In this document: piece after piece, positions 11,938-15,212 of the stretch
How positions within the stretch are numbered: position 1 is the stretch's first letter
Layout of the letters: every line of letters starts with the position of its first letter
Assembly (NCBI RefSeq): GCF_003334405.1
Contig: NZ_QOWM01000004.1
Reading direction: 5' to 3' (one strand)
Length of the DNA stretch: 64,000 nt
Origin: Escherichia coli
Lineage (GTDB): Bacteria > Pseudomonadota > Gammaproteobacteria > Enterobacterales > Enterobacteriaceae
Position numbers and translations under genes: made by a program
The notes under the pieces: generated by a model
Told to the model about the DNA's origin: nothing
The model's database searches: none
The model's input: the letters and a program-made list of their open reading frames with translations, nothing else

Positions 11938-12066
11938 GACGAGGTTCCATTATGGTTACAGAAGGGAAGTCCGCTATCAGGGTAACGGGAGATTTACAAA
12001 ATTCCAACTATTACTGATGAAAACGCAGGCTGTTTTTGCAAGACGTGAGATTGCTCTGGAAGGTAT

Positions 12067-12096
12067 AAAAAAAACAGGACCAAAGTCCTGTTTTTT
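12067..12096 (-). terminator. Intrinsic terminator downstream of ompF (bidirectional geometry)
   Basis: Hairpin acaggac-caaa-gtcctgt flanked by an A-run and a T-run, 26 nt downstream of ompF stop. Confidence 0.85.
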
Positions 12097-12121: not shown

Positions 12122-13210
12122 TTAGAACTGGTAAACGATACCCACAGCAACGGTGTCGTCTGAACCTACGCCCAGTTTGTTGTCAGAATCGATCTGGTTG
12201 ATGATGTAGTCAACATAGGTGGACATGTTTTTGTTGAAGTAGTAGGTTGCGCCCACTTCAAAGTAGTTCACCAGATCAACATCACCGATACCTTCTACGT
12301 CTTTCGCTTTAGATTTGGTGTAAGCGATGGACGGACGCAGACCGAAATCGAACTGGTATTGCGCAACTAACAGAACGTCTTGCGTTTTGTTGGCGAAGCC
12401 GCTGGTGTTTGTAAATTTATTAGTGATCGGCGTAGCGTTACGGGTTTCACCGTAGTTCGCTGCCAGGTAGATGTTGTTCGCGTCGTACTTCAGACCAGTA
12501 GCCCACTGTTCAGCTTTTTTACCGTTGCCAAGAGGTTGAGCTTCTTGCAGGTTGGTACGGTCAGCTGCACCATAAGCACCAACGATACCAAAGCCTTCGT
12601 ATTCGTAGCTGATAGAACCGCCAACACCGTCGCCGTTAGAACGGCGTGCAGTGTCACGCTCGTTTTTACCCAGGTACTGAACAGCGAAGTTCAGGCCATC
12701 AACCAGACCAAAGAAGTTGGAGTTACGATAGGTAGCAACGCCGCCAACACGACCAACGAAGAAGTCATCGCTGTATGCAGTATCACCACCAAATTCTGGC
12801 AGCATATCGGTGTAACCCAGTGCATCATAAACCACACCGTAGTTACGGCCGTAATCGAAAGAACCAACGTCAGCGTATTTAAGACCCGCGAATGCCAGAC
12901 GCGTTTTGTTACCAGTTTGAGCGTCAGCGCCTTCAGAGTTGTTACCCTGGAAGTTATATTCCCACTGACCATAACCGGTCAGATCGGAATTGATTTGAGT
13001 TTCCCCTTTAAAACCAAGACGGGCATAGGTCATGTCGCCATTGCCACCGTAACTGTTTTCACCGTTACCCTTGGAAAAATAATGCAGACCAACAGCTTTA
13101 CCGTACAGATCTACTTTGTTGCCATCTTTGTTATAGATTTCTGCAGCGTTTGCAGTACCTGCTACTAACAGAGCAGGGACGATCACTGCCAGAATATTGC
13201 GCTTCATCAT
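12122..13210 (-). CDS. ompF: Outer membrane porin OmpF
   Basis: 362-aa ORF with signal peptide [22 protein letters not shown] and C-terminal ...VGIVYQF; recognised as OmpF. Confidence 0.98.
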
Positions 13211-13356
13211 TATTTATTACCCTCATGGTTTTTTTATGACACCTGCCACTGCCGTCAATAAGTTCTGTCAATAAAAATTTACGGAACTATTGATGAGAGT
13301 TTGGTGTCTTTATGTGTCTGCAGGCATCTTTCCATTCAAACTAACGTTTCGCTACC

Positions 13357-13419
13357 GTGAAAGTGCTACAAAGATAAAGATTTGGTTTCAAAAAGAAAAA
13401 ATATGTAACCAAAAGTAAA
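13357..13419 (-). promoter_or_regulatory. OmpR binding sites F1-F3 of the ompF promoter
   Basis: Minus-strand sequence reads TTTACTTTTGGTTACATAT (F1), then TTTTCTTTTTGAAACCAAATC and TTTATCTTTGTAGCACTTTCAC, matching the known OmpR boxes. Confidence 0.8.
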
Positions 13420-13628
13420 ATTTAAGGAACTTTGTGAACACCGTCATATTTCCATAGAGACGTGATGATATTTACAGCAATTTTAATCTATTTATATGAT
13501 TTCCTTATATTTAAATTAACTAAACGGAAATTTTGTTTCTGATGGAAACTTTATCGACCTGGCACAAAATCTTCTTTCAGACATCCAGAATGCCAAAAAA
13601 TAGTATGAAAATTGTGCTATTAGCTAAG

Positions 13629-13666
13629 AAAAAACTAATCCGCAATAAGAATGCGGATTAGTTTTT
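13629..13666. terminator. Strong symmetric stem-loop (bidirectional terminator-like) in ompF-asnS intergenic region
   Basis: 12-bp perfect stem aactaatccgca/tgcggattagtt, 7-nt loop, A-run on left and T-run on right. Confidence 0.6.
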
Positions 13667-13769
13667 GCGCGTAAATGTTGCAATGTAATATTCCGTAACA
13701 GGATGATCGTTATGGCGGGGTTGCAAATAGATTGCTTGACTTAACAAACAGATAACTTGACAGAAAAGA

Positions 13770-13798
13770 TAAAAAAAGAGCCAGCGGGCGCTGGCTCT
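13770..13798 (-). terminator. Intrinsic terminator of asnS
   Basis: Hairpin agagccagc-gggc-gctggctct preceded on plus strand by A8 (T-run on minus), 14 nt from asnS stop. Confidence 0.8.
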
Positions 13799-13811
13799 TG
13801 AAGACGCTAAA

Positions 13812-15212
13812 TTAGAAGCTGGCGTTACGCGGAGTACGTGGGAACGGAATCACATCACGTACGTTTTGCACGCCAGTTACGTAAGCAATCAGACGTTCAA
13901 AACCAAGACCGAAACCTGAATGCGGAACAGTACCGTAGCGACGCAGATCGCGATACCACCAGTAATCTTCTTTATTCAGGCCCATTTCCAGCATACGCTC
14001 GTCCAGCACGTCCAGACGTTCTTCACGCTGGGAGCCACCAATGATCTCACCGATGCCCGGAGCCAGAACGTCCATAGCCGCAACGGTTTTACCGTCTTCG
14101 TTAAGGCGCATATAGAACGCTTTAATATCTTTCGGATAGTTTTTAACCACTACCGGTGCTTTAAAGTGTTCTTCCGCCAGATAACGCTCATGCTCAGAAG
14201 AGAGATCGACTCCCCAGTAAACCGGGTTTTCAAACTTCCTGCCGCAGTTTTCGAGAATGGTCACTGCGTCGGTATAATCCACCTGCGCAAAATCGGCTTC
14301 AATGAAGCGTTCCAGACGTGAAACGGCATCTTTATCTACGCGTTCAGCGAAGAATTTCATGTCGTCAGCGCGTTCTTCGAGAACCGCTTTGAAGACATAT
14401 TTCAGCATGGCTTCAGCCAGACCCGCAATATCGTTCAGGTTAGCAAACGCCACTTCCGGCTCCAGCATCCAGAATTCCGCCAGGTGACGGCTGGTGTTGG
14501 AGTTTTCAGCACGGAAAGTCGGGCCGAAGGTATAAATTTTGGACAATGCGCAAGCGTAGGTTTCGCCGTTCAACTGGCCAGATACGGTCAGGAAAGACTC
14601 TTTACCAAAGAAGTCTTTGTCGAAATCCACTTTGCCCTGATCGTTACGCGGCAGGTTTTCCAGATCCAGCGTAGAAACGCGGAACATTTCGCCTGCACCT
14701 TCGGTATCAGATGCGGTAATCAGTGGCGTTGAAACCCAGAAGAATCCCTGCTCGTTAAAGAAGCGATGCAGCGCCTGCGCCAGCGTATGGCGAACGCGCG
14801 CGACGGCACCAATCAGGTTTGTGCGCGGACGCAGGTGAGCGACTTCACGCAGATACTCAATGCTGTGGCGTTTTGCCGCCATCGGGTAAGTGTCTGGATC
14901 TTCAACCCAACCAGCAACTTCAACCTTGCTGGCCTGAATTTCAAATTGTTGCCCCTGGCCCGGCGACGCCACGACTTTACCCGTCACAATGACCGAGCAG
15001 CCGGTGGTCAGACGCAGGACGTCTTCATTGTAATTGGGCAGAGAATTATTGATGACAGCCTGTACAGGATCAAAGCAGGAACCGTCATAAACGGCGAGGA
15101 AGGAGATGCCAGCTTTTGAATCTCGGCGGGTACGTACCCATCCGCGCACGGTGACTTCGCTGTCAACGGCTACACGGCCCTGGAGTACGTCGGCTACAGG
15201 CACAACGCTCAT
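13812..15212 (-). CDS. asnS: Asparagine--tRNA ligase
   Basis: 466-aa product from ATG at 15210-15212 ([14 protein letters not shown]...); class II aaRS; track ORF extends 15 codons upstream from a GTG. Confidence 0.96.

Follow-up and report, generated by a model that had tools for sequence, protein, structure and literature searches.

An allele-specific palindrome beside the distal OmpR site of Escherichia coli ompF, probably a recent by-product and not a conserved control element

In Escherichia coli the porin gene ompF is separated from asnS by a long control region, and in the stretch of DNA analysed here (64,000 nucleotides of contig NZ_QOWM01000004.1, assembly GCF_003334405.1; hereafter the window) this spacer carries two hairpins downstream of asnS on the minus strand, which is the strand of both genes. 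The first is the asnS terminator. The second, at 13629-13666, is a perfect palindrome; it starts three bases from F4, the distal site of the regulator OmpR, on the side that faces the promoter. A comparison of alleles and species showed that the structure of this second hairpin is allele-specific, unconserved and without covariation, and that conservation at the level of DNA sequence extends to one of its halves. The hairpin is probably a recent by-product and not a conserved control element, and on balance we favour its interpretation as a recently perfected quasi-palindrome with incidental terminator activity, as opposed to a selected insulator or RNA element. The adjacency of the palindrome to F4, an open reading frame (ORF) of the plus strand that ends in it, and a transcript reported from that strand had all been absent from the first-pass annotation of this DNA.

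Two hairpins downstream of asnS

The second hairpin is made up of an A6 run (13629-13634), an arm (13635-13644), a loop of 7 nt (13645-13651), the opposite arm (13652-13661) and a T5 run (13662-13666). The perfect inverted repeat extends over 13630-13666; its mixed 10-bp arms are CTAATCCGCA and TGCGGATTAG, and five A.T pairs contributed by the flanking A-run and T-run bring the stem to 15 perfect pairs. A very stable symmetric stem-loop had been described at this place by the first-pass annotation, and folding bore this out (-21.2 kcal/mol on the minus strand, z = -6.5, and -20.3 kcal/mol on the plus strand); the stem of 12 bp that it had counted proved too short. This is the longest perfect stem of the whole window, and simulated sequence of like composition gave 0.05 stems of at least 12 bp per window. 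The other seven long stems of the window likewise have the appearance of an A-run, a stem and a T-run, and the two that were checked by annotation are the asnS and ompF terminators.

With a stable stem-loop and a U-tract on each strand (T6 for the minus strand, T5 for the plus strand), the second hairpin in this allele is built like a bidirectional intrinsic terminator. Its terminator score on the minus strand was 33, which equals the score of the ompF terminator, and its plus-strand score was 14; these scores follow a formula of the d'Aubenton-Carafa type with modern energy parameters, and are a rough guide only. A simple terminator scan of the region gave no call for the hairpin, probably because the scan extends the stem through the A and T runs. 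The supplements of TERMITe gave no entries. A search of 12900-14100 against Rfam at a permissive threshold returned two chance-level matches only (16.6 and 15.4 bits, against gathering thresholds of 100 and 80).

The intrinsic terminator of asnS occupies 13769-13799 on the minus strand, with a stem-loop at 13776-13799 followed by a T7 run at 13769-13775, and the reading of 13770-13798 as a canonical terminator was upheld both by folding (-17.8 kcal/mol, z = -5.8) and by the terminator scan. It starts 12 nt past the asnS stop codon, and its stem of 10 bp contains six G-C pairs and closes on a 4-nt loop; the rough score was 62. Using an AsnS-based scan with one genome per species, we compared 24 other Enterobacterales with a porin gene downstream of asnS, and in 18 of them a stem with at least 8 perfect pairs lay no further than about 65 nt from the asnS stop codon. 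The stems differ by genus (for example GGCCAGC, GAGTCGGG, GAGGCCGA and ATCCGC). This first hairpin thus combines a G+C-rich stem with a U-tract past a gene of the same strand, and its structure is kept despite changed sequence; on these features it is predicted to be a strong terminator, conserved across Enterobacterales. In three E. coli alleles (L082, L091 and L092) a multi-base segment right after the asnS stop codon has been replaced, the stop is changed from TAA to TAG, and the terminator stem is kept; of all 30-nt bins of the spacer, 13800-13829 is the most polymorphic.

The second hairpin lies about 115 nt beyond the asnS terminator, and no minus-strand promoter between the two was detected by eye or by promoter scan. 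On the minus strand, it is reached only by read-through of the strong asnS terminator. Termination at the second hairpin is plausible in either direction, as judged from its anatomy.

Variation of the second hairpin within and beyond E. coli

Positions 13100-13900 of the window were matched in 5425 of 5426 complete E. coli genomes, at least 80% of them in one piece in 5414, and the annotation beneath the matches was ompF and asnS every time. The exact 45-nt palindrome allele was present in 1407 of the 5425 genomes (~26%). One or two mismatches were found in 621, three in 3138 and at least five in 259 genomes.

We then compared 12 E. coli alleles (including those of strains 536 and O157:H7) together with E. 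albertii. The substitutions in the stem were confined to the minus-strand 5' arm (13652-13661), with variable sites at 13661, 13657, 13655 and 13653, and the 30-nt bin containing this arm held eight polymorphic sites, the densest bin save the stretch just past the asnS stop codon. The loop and the minus-strand 3' arm (13635-13651) were invariant in all 12 alleles and in E. albertii, and at no point did the 3' arm compensate for a change in the 5' arm. The folding energy of the 66-nt segment fell away from -21 to -17, -13 and -12 kcal/mol across the alleles, and the terminator score from 33 to 27, 19, 11 and -12, with -50 in E. albertii. No covariation of the second hairpin was found among the 13 sequences, as 449 of 500 shuffles reached the observed score and ten of the 15 hairpin pairs departed solely through unpaired cells. 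Since one half of the palindrome is constrained in sequence and the other drifts, a site acting at the level of DNA fits better than an RNA helix. The suggestion that the hairpin might be a processed RNA element was thus left without support, given the lack of covariation and of any Rfam family.

The same comparison indicated how the perfect palindrome may have come about. Both 13661 and 13668 are A in the outgroups and in every other E. coli allele compared, and the C at 13661 and the G at 13668 are therefore derived in the K-12-like allele. The ancestral state was an imperfect dyad, ATAATCCGCA-N7-TGCGGATTAG, and the A-to-C change at 13661 clears the mismatch between the mixed stem and its A/T extension to give the 15 perfect pairs. 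This resembles quasi-palindrome correction by template switching, in that an imperfect repeat was made perfect by one change, complementary to the invariant arm. It differs in that the repeat does not include the other derived change, at 13668, and in that the changes of the other alleles lower complementarity.

Beyond E. coli, the second hairpin was found in none of 12 other Enterobacteriaceae (E. albertii and 11 further species), though homologous sequence aligns there. The species that could be aligned at the hairpin site include E. albertii, two Citrobacter, Superficieibacter, Phytobacter, Leclercia and Kluyvera. Local folds at the homologous site in the 12 species ranged from -0.1 to -7.1 kcal/mol and did not reproduce the stem. 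These 12 species share the long form of the spacer (544-786 bp, mostly about 600 bp). The spacer is about 300 bp in Serratia, Yersinia, Erwinia, Pantoea, Pectobacterium, Brenneria, Photorhabdus and others, and these short spacers are without the distal half, F4 included; the absence of F4 has been reported for Yersinia, which agrees with the short spacer there. The distal half that carries F4 thus appears, from the distribution of spacer lengths, to be a family-level addition.

Interpretation of the palindrome and its alternatives

On the plus strand, a transcript running opposite to ompF and asnS between the two genes, with a putative small ORF, has been described (Stead et al., PMC3082872) under the name C0240 given by Tjaden et al.; a further occurrence of C0240 in the literature proved to be the name of an unrelated strain. 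In addition, the Term-seq data of Adams et al. (PMC7815308) place a plus-strand RNA 3' end, antisense to asnS, at MG1655 position 987644, which is 13871 in the window (the MG1655 coordinate being the window position plus 973,773). The report of C0240 and this 3' end together indicate that plus-strand transcription of the spacer is real, and the position of the end implies that the antisense transcript crosses the asnS terminator. The end at 13871 sits just past a stem region, GGCGT...ACGCC / GTACGTG...CACGTAC. A promoter scan picked out a sigma-70-like promoter on this strand at 13471-13500 (TTTACA-18-TATGAT, 10 of 12 matches), the -10 element of which falls inside a conserved block at 13491-13510; its -35 element is not conserved outside Escherichia. 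It is possible that this promoter-like site is the origin of C0240.

In the interpretation that we favour, the A-to-C change at 13661 would have perfected the ancestral imperfect dyad at the edge of F4 in the K-12-like lineage, and the palindrome of this allele would now act as a moderate bidirectional intrinsic terminator. It would probably stop residual read-through from asnS on the minus strand and C0240, perhaps started at 13471-13500, on the plus strand. Conservation of the loop and the 3' arm would more likely stem from a DNA-level role in the F4-dependent repression loop.

The palindrome can be compared with known bidirectional intrinsic terminators, which it resembles in its A6 run, 10-bp mixed stem, 7-nt loop and T5 or T6 tract on either strand, in a score like that of the ompF terminator, and in the presence of an IS200C insertion at its A-run, as is seen beside the ompF terminator and a further element of strain EC1515. 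It differs from them in that it does not lie between convergent genes, being placed past a strong terminator and inside a regulatory region, and in that its lower stem is A/U-rich and the palindrome as a whole is unconserved and devoid of compensatory change. The second hairpin would thus be at most a strain-restricted addition to palindromes of this bidirectional-terminator-like type.

Several points weigh against this interpretation. The lower half of the stem is rich in A and U, and a lower stem of that composition usually reduces the efficiency of termination. A perfect palindrome of 15 bp is far from a chance event and the allele is common at 26%, and selection for the palindrome in the K-12-like lineage could have taken place. 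We infer the template-switch origin of the change at 13661 from its pattern alone. Moreover, the plus-strand 3' end is placed past the hairpin, at 13871, which means that either the hairpin leaks on that strand or the RNA starts downstream of it. The Term-seq table of Adams et al. (PMC7815308) lists no ends at MG1655 9873xx-9875xx, though as the asnS terminator is missing from it too, this is not decisive.

The alternatives considered below overlap with the favoured reading and with one another, and their probabilities need not sum to one. The first is that the dyad, or its conserved half TCTTATTGCGGATTAG, is a DNA site bound by protein within the F4-dependent repression loop; candidates would be OmpR, with an extension of its binding, a nucleoid protein or some other dimeric regulator, or else a cruciform that depends on supercoiling. 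We consider this possible, though rather unlikely. Mean identity to E. coli, taken over the 12 other long-spacer species in 10-nt windows, was 0.81 at 13641-13650 (TCTTATTGCG, which covers part of the loop and the inner 3' arm) and 0.80 at a second conserved distal island at 13611-13620 (ATAGCACAAT). Both values are higher than that of the first half-site of F4 (0.65 at 13691-13700), so that two distal islands, one of them within the palindrome that adjoins F4, are more conserved than F4 itself, and neighbouring distal sequence scored only about 0.2-0.5. The island at 13611-13620 has TAGCAC in common with the OmpR box F3, and partial dyad symmetry could be read by eye in Citrobacter (8/10) and Phytobacter (7/10). 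Against this, no known motif was matched, a pattern search for the consensus of integration host factor (IHF) gave no match in the palindrome, and no footprints for -350 to -290 were found in the literature. The freedom of the 5' arm to vary also argues against a site for a symmetric dimer.

Two further islands were conserved to a similar degree, namely 13491-13510 (ATATAAGGAAATCATATAAA, identity 0.80-0.85) and 13421-13440 (TGTTCACAAAGTTCCTTAAA, just upstream of F1, identity 0.87). The former belongs to a conserved block at 13484-13510 (AAATATAAGGAAATCATATAAATAG) that overlaps an IHF-consensus-like match at 13484-13496; this match has one mismatch, and with two such matches in the spacer the pattern is not enriched above chance over the window. 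The islands at 13641-13650, 13611-13620, 13491-13510 and 13421-13440 are not explained by F4 alone.

A second alternative is that the palindrome terminates a genuine plus-strand gene, C0240, which would be transcribed divergently from inside the ompF upstream region and encode a small protein (39-48 amino acids) or a small RNA. This we regard as unlikely. It would account for the promoter-like site at 13471-13500, for the transcript seen on the plus strand in two array studies, and for a 39-codon ORF at 13542-13661 on the plus strand, the stop codon of which, TAG, forms the final triplet of the palindrome just ahead of T5; a frame also remains open in E. albertii. However, the ORF bears no mark of coding constraint, as its variants among the E. 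coli alleles comprise 16 nonsynonymous against three synonymous changes, with both a gain and a loss of a stop codon. The TAG is lost in most alleles, and one-base indels shift the frame in 536 and O157:H7. The ORF appears as a 'hypothetical protein' in automatic annotations only and is absent from curated annotation in the RefSeq records examined; nor was any Rfam family matched. The -35 element is unconserved beyond Escherichia, and on the plus strand the T-run is short and the score 14. The 39-codon ORF was thus rejected as a protein gene, which it probably is not. A second ORF of the same strand, of 25 hydrophobic codons (MIFTAILIYLYDFLIFKLTKRKFCF, 13465-13542), overlaps the promoter-like site and is probably spurious; it had no match in protein databases, and it is open in E. 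albertii but 11 of its 25 residues differ there.

As for the back-up terminator proposed in the first-pass annotation, a selected element would shield the DNA of F4 and F1-F3 and the ompF promoter from read-through of asnS. The hairpin is in the right orientation for this, some 115 nt past the first terminator, with a T6 tract, just ahead of the loop DNA and with a score similar to that of the ompF terminator. The palindrome, however, is downstream of F4, which it therefore cannot shield and leaves unprotected, and the asnS terminator ahead of it is already strong and conserved. Only ~26% of E. coli genomes carry the perfect form, and the hairpin is weakened or lost in the remaining ~74%, or about three-quarters, with losses that are not compensated. 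It is absent from the 12 other species, including the other genera examined, despite their 600-bp architecture with F4, and its pairs show no covariation. The unshielded F4, the strong upstream terminator, the weakening in most E. coli, the absence in relatives and the lack of compensation together speak against a conserved insulator or RNA element, and we consider a selected back-up terminator to be distinctly improbable.

It could also be envisaged that the strength of the palindrome as a bidirectional terminator or cruciform at the edge of F4, which varies by lineage from about -21 to about -12 kcal/mol (66-nt fold), and is lower still where no stem is left, tunes antisense and read-through transcription, or DNA looping, over the ompF region. 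We hold this to be very unlikely; if true, it would add to the differences in porin regulation that are associated with lineage or host, for which SNPs of the asnS-ompF spacer already serve as markers.

Finally, it is scarcely credible that the palindrome derives, as a remnant or as a copy, from some repeated or mobile element of palindromic type, for instance a repetitive extragenic palindrome or bacterial interspersed mosaic element (REP/BIME) or the end of a miniature inverted-repeat transposable element (MITE). Its palindromic form, its intergenic position and the insertion of IS200C beside it would suit such an origin, but it is single-copy, homologous non-palindromic sequence occupies the same site in other genera, and its likeness to other IS200C flanks amounts to a shared pattern of A-run, hairpin and T-run. 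Among the 5425 E. coli genomes, copies of the palindrome were found at a median of one place and a maximum of two per genome, where a REP/BIME- or MITE-like repeat would be expected in many dispersed copies, and this origin was rejected.

IS200C has inserted at the A-run of the palindrome at least twice. In strain GF60, in which ompF is intact, it lies in the A-run itself (window 13625-13634), and in three genomes from which ompF has been deleted (for example 366_BP0076) it lies about 5 bp off. In the ompF-deleted genomes the other IS200C junction falls in the A-run of the ompF terminator (terminator at 12069-12096; junction at window 12061-12069), and in strain EC1515 the same IS200C end adjoins another element composed of A6, a hairpin and a T-run. 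These insertions suggest that IS200C prefers A-runs beside terminator-like hairpins as targets.

Next to F4 the K-12 reference allele is atypical, as it has derived states at 13661 and 13668 and, unlike most E. coli, a perfect palindrome; what has been concluded in K-12 about the distal ompF region may therefore not hold for other strains. Few bacterial control regions have been studied as well as this one, and the present findings have little import for general biology, beyond serving as a case in which a striking hairpin can be young and unselected.

The asnS-ompF spacer and its OmpR sites

In the window, ompF occupies 12122-13210 and asnS 13812-15212, both on the minus strand; the asnS coding sequence, with its stop codon at 13812-13814, was taken from the RefSeq annotation of matching genomes. 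The intergenic region between them, 13211-13811, is 601 bp long with 34% GC, in keeping with the long AT-rich ompF control region that had been recognised from the letters of the sequence. On alignment with K-12 MG1655 the spacer differed by a single base, located in an A-run of the ompF leader. This stretch is the canonical, much-studied ompF control region of E. coli, and as such is already known. In minus-strand order it comprises the asnS terminator, F4, the palindrome, some 210 bp of loop DNA in which a few islands are conserved, F1-F3, the ompF promoter and the leader targeted by micF.

The OmpR boxes were read from the sequence at 13357-13418 on the minus strand (F1 13418-13399, F2 13398-13379 and F3 13376-13357), which upholds their earlier placement at 13357-13419. 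OmpR sites of ompF have been described as tandem 20-bp units, each a pair of 10-bp half-sites that carry AC at positions 4-5 (PMC1489923), and the AC dinucleotides of F1-F3 fall at the positions listed there. The three boxes are strongly conserved across 13 species.

The -10 element of the ompF promoter, AAAGAT, was read at 13326-13331, and together with the leader it spans 13211-13331 on the minus strand. We take the 5' leader of ompF, a target of micF, to be about 110 nt long, which would put the transcription start site (TSS) near 13319. The leader was conserved at an identity of 0.75-1.00 in each 10-nt window across the 13 species. The distal site F4 reportedly lies at -380 to -350 relative to the TSS (Huang et al. 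1994), and was placed on this basis at 13669-13699, where the minus strand reads GTTACGGAAT ATTACATTGC AACATTTACGC. Its core, TGTTAC...ATT, is conserved across the 13 species. F4 has been described as lying 260 bp upstream of F1-F2-F3 (PMC3050692), which is consistent with this position. Judged by their sequence, 13357-13418 and 13669-13699 thus have the features expected of F1-F3 and F4.

The locus can therefore be set directly beside the described E. coli system of F1-F3, F4 and the repression-loop model. It is the same locus, with the K-12 sequence but for the one spacer base, with F1-F3 at -40 to -100 and with a cluster of GTTAC/ATTAC/TTTAC that precedes F1 by about 260 bp, in line with the description of F4. 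No difference from the described system was found, and in the literature examined there was no mention of the palindrome that adjoins F4.

The asnS-ompF spacer is also a known polymorphic marker that has been used for source tracking of E. coli. In two of the sampled strains, E302 and A33, ompF is annotated as a pseudogene, with an internal stop codon in one and a frameshift in the other. The Term-seq table of Adams et al. (PMC7815308) also lists a strong minus-strand 3' end at window position 13198 (MG1655 986970), 12 nt into the ompF coding sequence, where it falls in the region of micF pairing and translation initiation.

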